A DNA stretch of 64,000 bases from Octopus vulgaris (taxonomy: Eukaryota): the NCBI GenBank assembly GCA_951406725.2, contig OX597817.1, forward strand, positions 44,764,001-44,828,000. The letters are read 5' to 3'. Within the stretch, counting starts at the first letter, position 1. Every line of letters starts with the position of its first letter. A program made the position numbers and the translations under genes. The notes beneath the pieces were generated by a model that worked only from the letters and a program-made list of their open reading frames with translations, was not told where the DNA came from and did no database searches. Positions 1-49,200 of this stretch are shown piece by piece.

Positions 1-860
1 TGTTTCTAACTTCATATTCCCTTTGCCATTCTCAGCTACTGCCACCAGCATTGTGATAATAATATTCAACAAAAAGCCATATAATATTTTAAAGTCTGGT
101 CATACATCATCAGGCGACTAATTTGCTTCAATTTCGCGTAAATATGAAGATATTTCAGGCACTTCCTTTGTTGTTTTTTCTAAATATTGTCATATAAACT
201 AGCTTCAGCTTTGCCCATTCAGCGTAACGATCCATCCACCATGTTTTCGCACGCCTTACTTTACTATGATGAAGACGGATGCCTCGATTACGTATTGTGA
301 CAAATGTCACGATTACTTATTGCTTTAAAGGTGAGAATTTTTACTAATTTTGTTCGTGTTTTTTTTAGTACAGTATATTTCTAATCGTAGGACATGGATC
401 AAAACCTTTCAGCGACTGCATTTTATTTTACATATGCCGAAAGTTACCAAAGTATATGATGTGATTGTTATATTAAAAAAAATAAATTACTCTCGCATTA
501 AAGCCACTGTATACCATTGTTTTGTGGCCAAACAGCGAGGAAAGAATGGCATTTCTAAGATATAGGTTGAAAAGAGAATTTTTCTGCGAGTGAAGTATTT
601 ATACATATACAGGATTTATATATATATATCACGTATATTCATAAATATACGTGACAACGACTGAACACAAAATGCAATTTTATATAAATATAACGAATTA
701 TCGTTCTTATTTTTGTCCGAAATCGGCGAAAAATTGAAGTAATTATTAATCTTTCTATAAAACAATTCGAAAAAGTTGCTACTAAAGGAATGAGTCAATA
801 TTGAAGAACATGACGTAACCCAAAAACTAGAACGGTGTTAAACATGTCGTGATCTTCTGG

Positions 861-5010: not shown

Positions 5011-5266
5011 TTGATAGAAATGGTAAGACAACAAAAGAATGGAAGAGAACTTGATATTAGGTAAATAGAGGAATTTATCTGTAAATATAATATGAAACAA
5101 TTATTCGGTAACCATGATAAAACTCCGAGTTTCGGATGTCGGGGCGGGAACTCACGCCGCCATCTCTTCAGTTATCCAGCCATCAGAGAGGGCAGCGTGG
5201 TTTCCGTCCGACATCCTAAACTCGGAGTTTTATCATGGCTACAGAATAATTGTCACATATTATATT

Positions 5267-5270
<4 letters not shown>
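5006..5270. mobile_element. fold-back (inverted-repeat) PLE-terminus-like element carrying a hammerhead motif, between two (TA)n tracts
   Basis: Arms ~5080-5167 and ~5185-5270 are imperfect reverse complements (CCATGATAAAACTCCGAGTTT / AAACTCGGAGTTTTATCATGG). Confidence 0.7.
5116..5176 (-). ncRNA. type I hammerhead ribozyme, canonical C3:G8 core
   Basis: Minus strand: GAUAA-CUGAAGA-GAUG...CAUC-C-GAAA-CUC(G)GAG-UU-UUAUC. Helix I is 5 bp, helix III is near-palindromic, cleavage triplet GUU. Confidence 0.7.
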
Positions 5271-5310
<40 letters not shown>

Positions 5311-5313
<3 letters not shown>

Positions 5314-6930
5314 TTAAATCCTTAAAAATGTTTTAGCCCGAAGGCCGCGGCCATGCTGGGGCACCACCGCTGAATGAGCTACACTAGTTTGTGAATCTAC
5401 CTCTGATACGTGGCACTTGATCAACAAGGGAGTTCGATGCTGCTGCCCGCATCCGTGTCTCCTGTCGTGAGGTAGGTTCATCTGGGACTCCCAACAAGAA
5501 GAGATCCAGTTTAGTTTTAAAGAAACCCACATCCACACCATGTAAGTCTCTCAGGCATTTAGGGAGGATGTTAAAGAGCTGTGGTCCTCTGAAACCCAAG
5601 CTGTTGCAGTATCTGGACCTGTATTTTGATGGTGATGTTGGAATCCTTGGCACCATGCAGCGGCGCCCCGTTCTGCGGTTGGAGTAACTTTGAATGCCAA
5701 AGTTTGGGACAAGACCCTCCAGGATTTTCCAGATGTATATCACTGCATATCTTCTTCCGCCTCCGCTCCAGGGAGAAGAGGTTTAATACCTTCAGTCTTT
5801 CCCAGTAGCTGACATTTTGCATTGAGACGATTTTCTTTGTGTAGCTTCTCTGAGTTGCTTCGAGTTCTGCTGTTTGTTTTATATTGTGTGGTGACCAAAG
5901 TTGGGAGCAGTAGTCCAAGCGGCTGAGGACAAATGTTTTCCATAGGACCATCAGTGTCTCCTTCTCTCTTGTTCTGAAAGTTCGGAGAATCCATCCAGCT
6001 AGCCGTCTGCATTTTATCACCAGATTAGCAATATGCATTTGGAAAGATGCATCATTGCTCATGTCAATGCCCAGGTCACGCACTGATTTTGACTCAGGGA
6101 TTGCAATTCTTCCTGGGCCAGTGTATCCAGTCTTCACGTCATTTACCTTTGTGTGCCAGTAGCGCAGGGCCTGGAACTTACCTGCATTAAACTGCATGTT
6201 GTTGTCCTCAGCCCACCTGTATATTGTGTCCAGCTCATGTTGCAGATGCGCAATATTTTCAGGGTTTTGTATTGCGTGGGAGACTTTTGTGTCATCTGCA
6301 TAGCTAGCAAGGGTGGTCATCGTAGCAACTGAAGGCATGTCTGAAAGGGCCACTATGAACATCAGTGGCCCCAAGACAGTGCCCTGTGGGACACCGCTTG
6401 TTATTTGCGTTTCCCTGGAGGTGGCTCCATTGCTCACAACTGCCTGTTTTCTGTCTTTTAGGAAGTTGTGCAGCCACTCTCCAAGTTTCCCGCCTATGCC
6501 GAGACCACGCAGTTTGTGACAGATCATACCATGGTCGACTTTATCAAAGGCTTTTGCAAAGTCAAGATATATTACATCCACATTTGAGCCATTTAGTAGC
6601 TGTTTCAACACCCAGTCATAGTGTTGCAGGAGCTGTGTTAGGCAGCCTCTACCTGGTCGAAATCCATGCTAGGTGTCAGACAGTAAGTCATTTTCTTCAA
6701 GGAACATGATTAGTTTCTTACGGACTATTCGTTCCATGACTTTGCTGATGTGTGAGGTCAGAGAGATAGGCCTATAATTTTTAGCATCTGCTCTGCTACC
6801 TCCCTTATGGATAGGGCATATTACCCCCTCTTTCAGTTTGACTGGGAGCTTACCACTTGCAAGAAAGCTCTGAAAAAGAAGCTGTAGCGGTTTTGCAAGG
6901 GCTCGTTTGCACGATTTGAGAAGGATCGCT
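5311..6930 (-). mobile_element. 5'-truncated CR1/L2-group LINE (RT domain), defective
   Basis: ORF 5571-6611 has DVIYLDFAKAFDKVDH, SGVPQGTVLGP, YADDTK and VRDLGI. Upstream YRPISLTSHISKVMERI. In-frame TAG near 6670, frameshift near 5745, 3' tail (TTTAAGGA)2; (TA)n on both flanks. Confidence 0.92.
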
Positions 6931-8822: not shown

Positions 8823-9066
8823 ATATATATATATATAATAGAAATATTAAAATTACTAAGTCTCTCTAAAAGAGATTACAGCAGCGTTCCTGGAAATTAA
8901 TAGTTATCGCCATACTAATATGGCATTCTTATAAAAATAAGAAAAAAGCTGTCCGCTTATTAGCTCCATGAGGCCATCGCCTAAAGTTAGCTATTCGATA
9001 CACAAACTGTATCCATATAACCTTCGAACAAGGGAGGTCAGTCGCTCCACACTACTTGACCGACAG

Positions 9067-9107
9067 CTACAGACGCGTTTCAGGGTATTTGCCCTTTGTC
9101 AATGCAG
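9067..9107 (-). ncRNA. minimal type I hammerhead ribozyme, U3:A8 variant (left arm)
   Basis: CUGCA-UUGACAA-AGGG-CAAAUA-CCCU-GAAAC-GC-GUC-UGUAG. Confidence 0.75.
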
Positions 9108-9142
9108 AGTAGTCAGACCCAGTAGGTGTCGCTTCTGACTAC

Positions 9143-9185
9143 GCTGCATTGACAAAGGGCAAATACCCTGAAACGCGTCTGTAGC
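9143..9185 (+). ncRNA. minimal type I hammerhead ribozyme, U3:A8 variant (right arm)
   Basis: GCUGCA-UUGACAA-AGGG-CAAAUA-CCCU-GAAAC-GC-GUC-UGUAGC. Helix I 6 bp, helix II 4 bp, palindromic ACGCGU helix III, GUC triplet. Confidence 0.8.
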
Positions 9186-9314
9186 TGTCGGTCAAGTAGT
9201 GTGGAGCGACTGACCTCCCTTGTTCGAAGGTTATATGGATACAGTTTGTGTATCGAATAGCTAACTTAAGGCGATGGCCTCATGGAGCTAATAAGCGGAC
9301 AGCTTTTTTCTTAT

Positions 9315-21921: not shown

Positions 21922-22120
21922 AGGAAATGTACTTGCATAGCAAGTGACCTGATCTGAGATCGTGTGCTGGAACGAAAACAATTGCAGCGTGGAAGGTGTT
22001 TATAAGCCATTTAAGAAACACACAAAAACCGTTAGATTCCCTTCAACATTCAAATTTAATTTGTCAAAATATTTTCGTCGCTTTGAGACCGCGACCTGTT
22101 CACTGACAAAATTCCGTGCT
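21922..22120 (-). mobile_element. ~200-bp non-autonomous hammerhead-bearing element (same family as 48493-48830)
   Basis: High identity to 48635-48830 over its whole length, with the same 5' boundary (..CCGTGCT). Confidence 0.8.
22060..22110 (-). ncRNA. minimal type I hammerhead ribozyme, G3:C8 variant
   Basis: UUUGUCA-GUGAACA-G-GUCGC-GGUCUCAAA-GCGAC-GAAA-A-UA-UUU-UGACAAA. Helix I 7 bp, helix II 5 bp, palindromic AAAUAUUU. Confidence 0.7.
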
Positions 22121-24579: not shown

Positions 24580-26820
24580 GTAGAAATATGTTACAAAAAG
24601 AAAATATAAAATACACGTGGAAATGTAAGGGGAAAATATGAAAAATCCACGAAAAAGCATATTGTAAATAAAAAAAGAAAAGGCTTTTTTTATGAAAGGT
24701 AACGACAGATATATACATTTAGATGGACTGAGGTAGTAATAAAAGTAAAAGTCATTATTATGAGATGATTAAAAAGTCAGAAAGAAAAGCATACCATGGT
24801 TTCTGCAAAGCTATTCATTGCTTTGAATAAACACCGGCTAATACACAGTGTCAGGTCTAATAGTTCCTGAGAAAAAAAAAACATTTGTAAGGGACGTAAG
24901 TGTTCTGGATTATTTGTAAGGGAGGTAAGTAGTTCTGGATTTAGTTATAGAGTTGTAATGTGAATGGCGTAGGGAGTGTATAGGGGTTAGTGGTTTTAAT
25001 TGATGGGTTAGTGGTGTTCTGTATTTAGTTGTGTGTTCATATTTAGTTGGGGGAGATATTTATTGATGGAAAATGCCTCTTAATTCAACCTTTGTTGCAT
25101 CGTGGTGTTCTGTGAACATTGATAGAAGGGGAAGATTTGGAAATTAAGATTAAGATTCCTGGCACGCATTTCTATGTGTTCACTAACCTGTAACTGTCTG
25201 TGGGTGGCGGATTTGCTCTTTGTGAATGGTGGTTTTTCGATGGAGTGCAATTTATGTTTGTCCAATATAGCGGTTACCACACCCTAAGCATGTCATGACA
25301 TAGAGTAGATTTTCAGAGGCGCAGGTGAAATTTGATTTGATCTTAAATATTTCTCCTTGTTTGAAGTGAAATTCTGAACCCTCCAAAAGGTGGGGGCATG
25401 TTCCACAGTTAGTACGCTCACATTTTTTCACTTTTGGCTCTGTTGTTAGTGGATACAGTCTTGCGCTGGTTAATATTTTTTTCAGTGACTTCGGTTGTTT
25501 TTTGCTTTTTATAATTTTGTATGAGCTTAAAATTTCGTTCATTTTGTCTGCTGTGAGGATGGGAAGATTTTGGGTGATAATGTTGAAGGCCTCGTTGTTT
25601 CTAGGGTTATGTGTGGAAATGTACGGGAGTATTTTTAATTCTGGTTTGCCTTAACATTTGTATATCTATTTCCTTAGCTCTTTTAATGCCTTCATTTATT
25701 AATGAGATTGGGTAATGTCTTTTAGTTAGTGTTGATCTAAGTTCAAGGAATCTTTGTTCACAAGTATATGTATCCGAAACTATGATACAGATTCTTTTCG
25801 CTAGATTAAAGGGTATATTAATTTTTCTGTGTTTGGGGTGGCAAGAGTTAAATAATAGGTATTGTTTAGAATCTGTGGGTTTATAAAAGATATCTGTTTT
25901 TATGTGGTTGTTAACTATTTTAATTAAGATGTCTAGTTGTTTACTGTTGTGTTCCATAGTGAATTGTATGTTGCTATGTATGTTGTTAAGCATTATTTTG
26001 AAATCAAGGAGTTTATCCATGCTGTCTTTCCAAAGTATGAAGTAATCATCCAAATATCTCTGCCAGTTCCCCTTTAAATAGCAATTAAAAGAGGCGCCAT
26101 ATTTTTCTAGTGATGATTGGTATAACCTGAGTTCTAGGTAACCTATTACAAGGTTTGCAATCACTGGAGCAGCTCTGGTTCCCATTGCAATTCCACATTT
26201 TTGTCGATAGTAAGTTGTATCGCACATGAAATAATTGTTCAGCAGGATGAATTTGAGTGCTTCAATTATAAAACTGTGGTTAATGCGTCCAGGGATCTCT
26301 TCTGGGTATTTTTCTAGCCAGATTGTGATTGATTCTATACCATAGTCGTGTGGGATATTGGTGTATAGATTCACCACATCGAAAGATACCAGCAGAGTTC
26401 CTTCCTTTACTGTCTTCGGGAGGTGGTTCAGCATGTCTAGGTCATCCCTGATAAAGCTTTTCACATATTTTAAAAACGTAAATATTTGAGTAATATGTCG
26501 AGGAAGTTGCTCAAACGGTGGGTTACACAAGAAGGGCCAGCTACGATGGGTCTCAGTTTGAGGTCAGTAGGGGGGGGGGGCATTAATGCATAGGCTTGTA
26601 GAGACTTTGCAGGCTTCACAAATGTGTGGATCTTTATGTATTTTGGGTAATTCGTAGAATAGACTAGGACTGTATTTAAAATTGGATAAATAGTCTATTT
26701 CATGTTTAGTGAGACCCCGCATTTTTGTTGCAAGATTCCCGATATTAAACTGTGTGTTGAAACAGATATTGTTGTATTTCGGGGTGGTATTCTTTTTAGC
26801 CAAAGAACCACAGGTACTAT
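24580..26820 (-). mobile_element. Penelope-like element, Neptune type (RT + Cys linker + C-terminal GIY-YIG endonuclease), frameshifted and 5'-truncated
   Basis: FYELPKIHK...LRPIVA, LVSFDVVNLYTNIP, YRQKCGIAMGTRAAP, WQRYLDD, TDIFYKPTDSKQYL; linker CERTNCGTC; NLLYVMTCLGCGNRYIGQT. Confidence 0.93.
24786..24824 (-). ncRNA. minimal type I hammerhead ribozyme, A3:U8 variant, in Neptune 3' terminus
   Basis: AAAGCA-AUGAAUA-GC-UUU-GC-A-GAAA-CC-AU-GG-UA-UGCUUU. Helix I 6 bp, palindromic ACCAUGGU, GUA triplet; helix II only 2 bp. Confidence 0.65.
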
Positions 26821-44145: not shown

Positions 44146-45360
44146 ATATATAGAAAATCGTAAAAAGTGAAAAAAACTACAGAAGGCTTGTTTTAAAAGG
44201 TTAAAAAATATATATTTGAGTCAATATGTCTGAAGAATATTATAAATTTTTTTCTTACAATGACATAGTTTAGAAGAACCTTGCAAGAAGGATATGCACA
44301 ATAGTGTCAGAACAAAATACCAGGAACTTTAGACTGCAAGAACTCAAAAACACCCTAATTGACAGACATTACCCAGCTCAACTTATAGAGGATGGGATCA
44401 GACGTGCAACAGAAATCAACATAGAAACTTTAAGAAAAGTTCAACACAACAACACACCTTCCCCAAAAATACTACCTTACATATCTACATACAACCCCAG
44501 AAACAAAGAAGCCATCATCACCCAGAATTTACCAATACTTCATAAGGACCCCAAATTAAAGGAAATTCTATACATACACCAAATCATTAAAAGCTACAAA
44601 CAACCTAAATTCTCACAAAAGGAAAATTGTTTTCTGAAATTACGGATGCAAAAGTAAAAAAAATGTGGTAGATCGAACTGTGCAACATGTCCAAACCTGC
44701 TAGAAGGATCAGAATTCCTCTTCAAAGAGGGACAGAAATACAAGATCAAATCTAACTTTACTTGTGCCTCTGAAAACATAATTTAAGTCATAAAATGCTC
44801 GGGCTGCCACCAAGACTACGTGGGATCAACGGGACTATCACTCAGACGTAGATGCACACTGCATCGACAACAGATTACCTTTTAGTGAGCACATTGAGAA
44901 ATGCGTAAAGCAACTACTACCACAATTTTTAATCTTTCCATTTTACCAATGTGCGATCGGATCATCAACACAAATTAGACTAAACAAGGAAACATTCTTC
45001 ATTGAAAAGTACAAGCCCAGACTTAACCATTCCAACATACTGATACAGAGAAATTCACACCAAGGGAAAGGCAAAAAATTTTAAGCGATTATCTCCCTTA
45101 CACCGGAAGAAATTACTCATTACCTCCCCTTATTCAGAACTCTTTTCAACATAAACATAACGATAACTCTGCTCAACATAAACATAACGACGTAAGAAAT
45201 TTGAAAAGCTAAACGCGAAACCGGTCTTTCTTCTAAACTATGTCATTGTAAGAAAAAAAATTTATAATATTCTTCAGACATATTGACTCAAATATATATT
45301 TTTTAACCTTTTAAAACAAGCCTTCTGTAGTTTTTTCACTTTTTACTATTTTCTATATAT
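44146..45360 (+). mobile_element. 5'-truncated Neptune-type Penelope element with inverted terminal repeat
   Basis: NLARRICTIVSE...RHYP...LPYISTYNP; CGRSNCATCPNL; SNFTCASENII*VIKCSGCHQDYVGST. 44146-44278 is the reverse complement of 45228-45360; (TA)n nearby on both sides. Confidence 0.92.
45194..45232 (+). ncRNA. minimal hammerhead motif, U3:A8 variant, in Neptune 3' terminus
   Basis: AAGAAA(U)-UUGAAAA-GC-UAAAC-GC-GAAAC-CG-GUC-UUUCUU; palindromic ACCGGU; one unpaired U at the base of helix I. Confidence 0.6.
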
Positions 45361-45382
45361 ATATCTATATATATATATATAT

Positions 45383-48230: not shown

Positions 48231-48249
48231 GGTATATATATATTTATGC

Positions 48250-48414
48250 ACACACACAAACATATACATCTATATATACAACGGGCTTCTATCAGTCTCC
48301 GTCTAACAAATCCACTCGCAAGGCTTTGGCTGGTCCGAGGTTATATAGTAGAAGACACTTGCCCAAAGTGCCCGGAGCCATGTAGTTGGGAAGCAAGTTT
48401 CTTACCACTCCTGT
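48250..48414 (-). mobile_element. SINE family B, 5' part
   Basis: AAATCCACTC..AAGGCTTTGG..GAAGACACTTGCCCAA..ACCACTCCTG. Confidence 0.75.
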
Positions 48415-48417
48415 ATA

Positions 48418-48492
<75 letters not shown>

Positions 48493-48497
<5 letters not shown>

Positions 48498-48829
48498 TGC
48501 AGCGTGGAAGGTGTTTATAAGCCATTTAAGAAACACACAAAAGCCGTTCGATTCACTTCAACATTTGAGTTTAATTTGTCAAAATACTTTCGTCGCTAAA
48601 ATCCGCGACCTGTTCACTGTCAAAAATCCGTGCTGCACGAATTTTTGTCAGTGAACAGGTCGCGGATATTAGCGACGAAAATATTTTGACAAATTAAACT
48701 CAAATGTTGAAGTGAATCGAACGGCTTTTGTGTGTTTCTTAAATGGCTTATAAACACCTTCCACGCAGCAATTGTTTTCGTTTCAGCACACGATCTCAGA
48801 TCAAATTACTTGCTATCCGAGTACATCTC

Positions 48830-48830
<1 letters not shown>
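48493..48830. mobile_element. palindromic (head-to-head) pair of the ~200-bp hammerhead element inserted in (TA)n
   Basis: Arms 48493-48633 and 48635-48775 with a 1-nt centre; the right arm continues to 48830; (TA)n on both sides. Confidence 0.88.
48644..48693 (+). ncRNA. minimal type I hammerhead ribozyme, G3:C8 variant
   Basis: UUUGUCA-GUGAACA-G-GUCGC-GGAUAUUA-GCGAC-GAAA-A-UA-UUU-UGACAAA; the mirror copy on the minus strand (48575-48624) has a helix I mismatch. Confidence 0.72.
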
Positions 48831-48864
<34 letters not shown>

Positions 48865-48904
48865 CATACATATACCACTCCTGCATATATATGTATATAT
48901 ATAC

Positions 48905-48954: not shown

Positions 48955-49200
48955 AGGAGTGGCTGTGTGGTAAGGAGTGGCTGTGTGGTAAGGAGTGGCT
49001 GTGTGGTAAGGAGTGGCTGTGTTTGTCACCTCATCATCGCTTGACGCAGCTTTTGGTGTGTTTACGTCCCCGTAACTTAGCGGTTCGGCAAAACAGGACC
49101 GATAGAACAAGTACTACGCTTACAAACAATAAGTCGTGGGGGTCGATTTGTTCGACTAATGGCGGTGCTCCAGCATGGTCGCAGTCAAATGACTGAAAAG
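48955..49200 (+). mobile_element. rearranged SINE family B (tandem 18-bp head repeats fused to the 3' half)
   Basis: (AGGAGTGGCTGTGTGGTA)x3.5, then the family B 3' sequence. Confidence 0.8.

Follow-up and report, generated by a model that had tools for sequence, protein, structure and literature searches.

Short repeats with a predicted hammerhead motif in Octopus vulgaris are solo pLTR copies of a Penelope-like element with a fixed 5' end

In Penelope-like elements that carry an endonuclease (EN+ PLEs), solo pLTRs are mentioned as few and are ascribed to recombination or deletion (PMC3846280), while head-to-head repeats are explained by antisense self-priming (PMC8557442, PMC3846280); the origin of the PLE tail, of the inverted arms and of the solo repeats is described as still open (PMC8557442). 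For the element PAc, in vitro work reports internal priming at two sites inside the start of the ORF with extension on both strands, a process that depends on RNA past the start sites but not on ribozyme cleavage (PMC11167929). The minimal hammerheads of metazoan PLEs are reported with a U3:A8 core pair (PMC4209133), and in PAc a C3G/G8C double mutant partly restores cleavage (PMC11167929). In another class of retroelements, a G at the start of full-length L1 copies has been interpreted as a reverse-transcribed cap (PMC2912911).

Here, I show that a short repeat found in the window (the whole 64,000-nt stretch of Octopus vulgaris DNA that was analysed) is the last ~206 bases of the pLTR of a protein-coding EN+ PLE, including the first ~30 codons of this parent. 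A monomer and a two-armed insertion, 89-90% alike, lie where the first-pass annotation had drawn them (Table 1; +1 is the A of AGCACG, window position 22120, minus strand). Its account of a G3:C8 hammerhead about 10 nt from the start, of a helix II that is kept while its loop varies, and of full copies terminating in GTACAT[CT]TCC also holds: the core reads GUGAACA, helix I begins 10 nt into the unit, the stem of helix II is constant across subfamilies, the loop being variable, and the terminal motif is followed by (GTAA). The claim that the unit is non-coding and holds no ORF does not, for an ATG at 22010 (-) and 48743 (+), about unit position +111, opens the N-terminus of the parent polyprotein (frame MAYKHLPR...). 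As to the common start at AGCACG, the fixed 5' end is real, but the modal end is AGATGC, lying directly before AGCACG and thus 6 nt upstream of +1. The window monomer, which starts at +1, is 6 nt short of it and ends at the second of two 3' end sites (site 2, below); a target-site duplication (TSD) was looked for at this locus and none was found. In the dimer the junction of the two arms is at -3, inside an imperfect palindrome of 7 bp (TGCACG in the right arm); L018, L021 and L214 have the same junction. The left arm is a normal site-1 arm; its reading as a damaged full copy was rejected, its 3' end being the first priming site of the family (+138..150). The right arm shares 96.5% identity with the 3' pLTR of L295, a parent copy with an EN, and the (TA)n target that holds the dimer sits inside an abundant interspersed repeat (48236-48408, 49013-49198).

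Table 1. Positions of the unit copies and of their parts within the window
Feature	Position	Strand	Remark
Solo copy (monomer), subfamily A (loop GGUCUCAAA)	21922..22120	-	unit positions +1..+199
Minimal type I hammerhead motif of the monomer, predicted	22059..22110	-	descriptor and folds
First ~29 codons of the parent PLE ORF in the monomer	21922..22010	-	spans site 1 and the tail
PLE tail of the monomer	21922..21977	-	~55 nt between the two 3' end sites
Tail-less (left) arm of the two-armed insertion, subfamily B2	48493..48634	-	site-1 end (CAATTG), helix I mutated
Head-to-head junction	48631..48637	.	imperfect palindrome TGC(A/T)GCA at the unit 5' end
Tail-bearing (right) arm, subfamily B2	48635..48831	+	site-2 end
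Hammerhead motif of the right arm, predicted	48643..48694	+	
First ~29 codons of the parent ORF in the right arm	48743..48831	+	
(TA)n target holding the dimer	48413..48875	.	

The hammerhead spans unit positions +11..+62 and is made of helix I, the core, a bulged G, a 5-bp helix II, GAAA, and a palindromic AAUAUU helix III; by its core, helices I and II and palindromic helix III it is predicted to be a minimal hammerhead ribozyme, with the putative cut of the monomer between 22067 and 22066 (-). Folding of the motif yields z values of -3.0 for the monomer, -3.75 for the right arm and -1.4 for the left arm, in which helix I is mutated, and folding of the whole unit is unremarkable (z -0.13). 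The motif was called by my own descriptor together with these folds, an Rfam scan having called no hammerhead at the unit, and a comparison of family copies revealed no clear extra conservation of the motif.

The link to the parent comes from upstream sequence shared by 10 arms at 9/79 sampled loci. Followed for ~1 kb across microsatellite-rich DNA, this sequence reaches the end of a GIY-YIG ORF, which also has an RT and is 1,000+ aa long. For this ORF-end region there are 364 candidates, of which 40 were scored, with identities of 97-100%, and the unit lies downstream of the EN in 26/30 EN-bearing loci. A case in point is L292, which holds a 999-aa open stretch with an RT motif (YVDD, read in translation), a CX3CXXC linker and GIY-YIG. 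Pfam gives a GIY-YIG match above cut-off in the parent ORF (E 1.6e-5) and no RVT_1 match in the 999-aa stretch; a CX2-5CXXC linker and a CCHH in the EN were seen by eye in the translation. The protein has 176 homologues, mostly unnamed, the closest named one being an octopus protein, and it shares only 21-26% identity with two other PLE families of the genome. At L302, L314 and L294 the tail is joined directly to the parent ORF, the unit standing both before and after the ORF at L302, and ~1 kb of the 3' region plus the unit standing ahead of it at L314; in PAc, too, the start sites are located within the ORF (PMC11167929). The window dimer arms are 94-97% and the monomer 89-92% identical to the parent pLTR. 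An ORF with RT and C-terminal GIY-YIG, linked to the unit, marks the parent, a young element, by its sequence as an EN+ PLE.

The search for an autonomous PLE sharing this terminus, proposed in the first-pass annotation, thus ended in a parent ORF, so the unit is not an orphan; an orphan element had been hinted at by best-score samples (60 loci, upstream extension of at most 15 nt) and was overturned by the position-ordered sample. A PLE remnant of the window (25252-26563) and two intact families found through it were tried as parent and rejected, the unit matching one of 50 loci, in a separate piece on the opposite strand. The tail-to-ORF junction occurs at 22 loci; the stretch of ORF that follows exceeds 1.5 kb at 3 of them, measures 30-215 nt at 14 and comprises just a few codons at 5. 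No intact full-length parent was seen, the 3 long loci among the 22 each being interrupted or lacking a start, and the 5' ORF is held by only 23 candidates, so the thousands of solos must stem from few or vanished masters. At one further locus (L138:1-720) the endonuclease region of a different PLE family is followed immediately by the parent 3' region, through a nested insertion or an inter-family template switch.

A 20-mer of the unit core has 5,824 exact matches in the 2.8-Gb genome, which count arms and not insertions and are a lower bound, and its reversed control has none. Exact matches fall to 554 for the 21-mer just upstream, to 22 for the tail-to-ORF junction, and to 23 for the 5'-ORF candidates. 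The main sample was drawn from 96 of the first 100 listed core positions, from which 4 second cores of dimers and 9/10 cargo copies (see below) were removed, and was completed by the two window insertions, giving 79 loci and 120 arms; the pooled set holds 130 loci, 9 duplicate loci having been removed. Samples were drawn by exact-match patterns on C1/C2 and are biased to young copies. Divergence from the class majority ranges from 1.4% (B2) to 3.2% (A). At 10/86 sampled loci (L121, L123, L185, L186, L188, L189, L192, L210, L225, L229) one unit dimer has been amplified as cargo within a larger dispersed repeat, with at least 500 nt of flank in common per side. Sequencing runs under four organism labels (A-D) contain 72-89% of the sampled words of the unit, therefore the family is likely shared among related species.

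The 5' ends pile up at one place: 61 of the 79 loci have an arm starting at -10..+3, another 9 start at +4..+15, and 9 extend upstream. That the 5' end does not result from random truncation, as claimed from the window alone, is thereby borne out in the sample, the 9/79 upstream-extended loci being few where most copies might have extended. A lesser pile-up at +10 (11/120 arms) is probably an alignment artefact beside variable positions 7 and 9. As a control, an unrelated autonomous family of the genome has two 3' sites alike (17 and 12 of 30 copies, 1 running on), whereas its 5' ends are scattered from -84 to beyond -1,480 in 25/30, with 1/30 at -23 and 4 fold-backs at +2 in one cluster. The scatter argues that the 5' wall of the unit is not an artefact of the method, and, for the control shows no solo pile-up, solo behaviour is not general.

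At the wall stands an extra base. Of the 868 AGATGC copies that stop short of -10, the first 100 have G 57 times, C 23 times, T 13 times and A 7 times at position -7 (hand count), the parent base there being C or T; the base preceding the extra G (T26, A24, C5, G2) resembles AT-rich target DNA. Among the sampled loci the extra base is G in 17 versus A in 2, or 10 versus 2 (p 0.001) after subtraction of the cases that microhomology or a TSD explains. I infer that the extra G is a copied m7G cap and that -6, the A of AGATGC, would be the transcription start. There the parent reads CTCAGA, which would fit the initiator consensus. A spliced leader or a short first exon was rejected, no base being common beyond one G.

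Alternatively, the wall might not be a transcription start but a point of RNA processing or an RT stop within the 3' pLTR, set by a 3' splice site or by the border of the microsatellite tract. A branch-point-like CTAAC and a pyrimidine tract lie upstream, with CAG right at the wall, and an intron of D. virilis ends at helix I of its hammerhead (PMC4209133). Yet the AG is retained in many solos, the upstream exon or leader that splicing should leave in common is absent beyond the one G, an RT stop would not add a single G at a fixed place, and the wall is ~35 nt away from the microsatellite, all of which makes this account distinctly improbable.

The 3' ends are as constrained as the 5' end. 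For 120 arms, 46 end at +132..150 (site 1), 66 at +193..201 (site 2) and 8 elsewhere. Two-armed insertions make up 39/79 loci of the main sample and 66/130 of the pooled set; 59 of these 66 dimers pair a site-1 with a site-2 arm, 7 pair another end with site 2, and none has the same site twice, so that 59/59 classifiable dimers have one of each. Arms of different subfamily were found in 3/15 dimers typed as B1/B2, about 5 being expected with random pairing, and no mixed A/B dimer was found beside 28 A/A dimers; L190, once considered a mixed A/B1 dimer, has an identical loop in both arms and was left uncounted. At least some of the mixed dimers would consist of two RNAs from co-active sources, later gene conversion being the alternative, and mixed arms do not fit antisense self-priming as the source of head-to-head repeats. 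As for the targets, (TA)n accounts for 56 of the 110 insertions ending at site 2, and 30/54 of the others have a TSD of 8-15 bp (shuffled control mean 1).

Which RNA is copied is indicated by copies that begin at the wall and do not stop at the tail. Seven of the 22 exact tail-to-ORF junction loci start at -10..-3 and run 57-215 nt into the ORF (L318 and L319 among them may be one event), hence RNAs beginning at the wall continue into the ORF. At L341 the wall is joined straight to an internal piece of the ORF, as would result from a template jump from the RNA end. Subfamilies A, B1 and B2 are found at 38/15/36 among solos and at 11/3/11 among upstream-extended copies (p 0.84), and each is present among the ORF run-ons, every solo subfamily thus having an ORF-linked counterpart; no downstream flank common to solos was found among 65 tail-bearing arms, a comparison of low power. 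Run-ons, subfamily shares and unshared flanks favour the view that the solos are by-products of the parent mRNA.

The same three observations count against the idea that the unit propagates itself as a non-autonomous element, in which solos, or copies of ~300-400 bp reaching from the start to an ORF fragment, hold an internal Pol II promoter, are transcribed by read-through and are re-copied in trans. Moreover, PAc needs RNA past the start sites (PMC11167929), which a solo lacks. On the other side of the scale, solos outnumber upstream-extended copies by ~10:1 (5,824 versus 554 exact matches) and 5'-ORF copies are few; a copy beginning at the RNA start would retain an internal promoter, as found in the Penelope of D. 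virilis (PMC2377424); the cap G fits equally well; and short unit-ORF(187 nt)-unit structures are present (L350, L351). I regard self-propagation as unlikely, though a serious contender. Candidates for short non-coding masters were observed at G000:C28 (L330/L351 and L331/L350): an array in which a site-1 unit recurs about seven times, and structures with 187 nt of ORF between two units. Along the same line, one may speculate that 206-nt promoter-bearing cap-to-tail solos (or ~350-nt run-ons), shed in one step through internal priming, serve in turn as sources of transcripts and new insertions. Such a Pol II "mini-Penelope" parasite would be the missing first stage toward retrozymes, its insertion being the work of a dimeric enzyme that takes up two RNAs and begins at a different site on each strand. 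This proposal, too, is doubtful.

The reading I prefer, with a probability of about 65%, is that the solos are made by the parent enzyme priming reverse transcription inside the 5' pLTR of its own capped mRNA. The parent mRNA would start at -6 within the 5' pLTR, both start sites being present twice. The GIY-YIG domain would nick both target strands, and internal priming would follow from each nick, at site 2 for one strand and at site 1 for the other. Priming at the 5' pLTR copy would yield cDNAs of 145 or 206 nt running to the cap, and priming at the 3' pLTR of the same mRNA would yield the ~10% of upstream-extended copies with scattered 5' ends; a need for RNA beyond the start sites, as in PAc, would favour the former. 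A monomer would arise when a cDNA is joined to the target, and a dimer when two cDNAs, at least sometimes from two different RNA molecules, are joined head-to-head by microhomology, often in TGC(A/T)GCA. The ribozyme would be carried along uncut, and most solos would be dead ends.

Several points weigh against internal priming. The cap is deduced from DNA junctions; with no intact full-length parent in sight, thousands of solos must be laid to few or vanished masters; the control family has no solo pile-up; the sequence of the 5' end doubles as a good 3' splice site; the run-ons could derive from tandem RNAs or from short non-coding masters; and the three heterotypic dimers could be due to later gene conversion.

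In its size and hammerhead the unit resembles a retrozyme, whose monomers, released by tandem hammerheads, would form circles that serve as templates for rolling-circle reverse transcription, and retrozymes are indeed pLTR-related and have monomeric derivatives (10.64898/2026.07.22.740005). However, head-to-tail repeats with two whole hammerheads occur in 0/79 loci, the one site-1 array (L330/L351) lying outside the sample, and no sequence 3' of the tail is placed upstream of the start. In addition, only 5/200 arms have an end 3 nt or less from the predicted cut, the copies starting ~60 nt upstream of it, which suggests uncut RNA as the likely template. A retrozyme origin is thus very improbable. 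Likewise, no tRNA, 5S or 7SL (Pol III) head was found at the unit by Rfam, the head being the parent's pLTR; by the tests run, the unit is neither a retrozyme, for want of tandem repeats, nor a SINE, for want of such a head. Of the first-pass view of a PLE-mobilised non-autonomous unit, it stands that PLE machinery inserted it, whereas a self-contained retrozyme- or SINE-like element is wrong or unsupported, for an autonomous PLE has a pLTR with which the whole unit is collinear, and seven wall-starting copies run into the ORF.

The window contains further elements. At 8937-9314 lies a near-perfect 378-bp inverted repeat, close to whose centre a hammerhead-like motif with a U3:A8 core and a CGCG palindrome can be read by eye; the repeat is probably another two-armed PLE-type insertion, its Rfam label MIR399 being a mislabel; a second inverted-repeat element with 81% arms (5073-5277) adjoins (TA)n. 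Broken remnants of two other EN+ PLE families, their DNA unrelated to the unit, lie at 25252-26563 (-) and 44274-45380 (+), and a frame fragment of a LINE-type reverse transcriptase (365 aa, by eye) at 5571-6668 (-). Elsewhere in the genome, L091 (G000:C9:2168500-2176500) and L099 (G000:C6:17950500-17958500) represent two young PLE families with open frames of 753 and 811 aa and U3:A8 hammerheads, the latter with an overlapping upstream frame of 495 aa that has no Pfam match.

In the open-access papers searched, I found no start-anchored solo pLTRs with a cap G as the dominant product, no strict pairing of site 1 with site 2 and no arms of mixed subfamily. The main text of a paper on octopus repeats (PMC13282606) contains neither "hammerhead" nor "ribozyme", and its library may hold the unit family. 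The transposon class to which the family belongs is known, the family being a variant of it, and nothing points to a host function. Its importance lies in that thousands of short, near-identical insertions read out the PLE reaction: one arm per start site, the RNAs sometimes different, and an extra G at the transcription start. Specific predictions thereby follow from the in vitro result on PAc, and the family offers a reason why most animal minimal hammerheads stand alone; it also calls for caution, since short repeats of such kind may be misfiled as SINEs or retrozymes.

To sum up the comparison with known systems, in what their published descriptions cover, the parent resembles EN+ PLEs of the Neptune/Nematis type in its ORF with RT and C-terminal GIY-YIG, in a pLTR that holds the hammerhead and the first codons, in an optional tail and in two internal start sites (PMC8557442, PMC3846280; PAc, PMC11167929), as well as in the inverted head-to-head tail-less arm and in a TSD or (TA)n target (PMC8557442, PMC3846280). 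It departs from them in that solos with one fixed 5' end and an extra G account for about nine in ten hammerhead loci, in a tail of ~55 nt versus 30-40, and in a microsatellite-rich 3' region of ~1 kb. With the minimal hammerheads of metazoan PLEs (PMC4209133) the unit shares the unpaired base between 9 and 10.1, G10.1-C11.1, a longer helix II, a palindromic helix III and mostly single genomic motifs, and differs by its G3:C8 core and UUU cleavage triplet, its activity being predicted only. Like metazoan non-LTR retrozymes (PMC7229834; 10.64898/2026.07.22.740005), it measures 150-450 nt, has a type I hammerhead, is pLTR-related and PLE-mobilised and occurs as dispersed monomers; unlike them, it shows neither tandem arrays nor circular permutation and is collinear with an autonomous parent that is 95-97% identical. 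Finally, as in L1 twin priming (PMC2912911), a second nick would prime internally, the cDNAs would be joined by microhomology and the starting G would be a copied cap, whereas here both arms cover one segment of the RNA from two fixed start sites, and some pairs would come from different RNAs.
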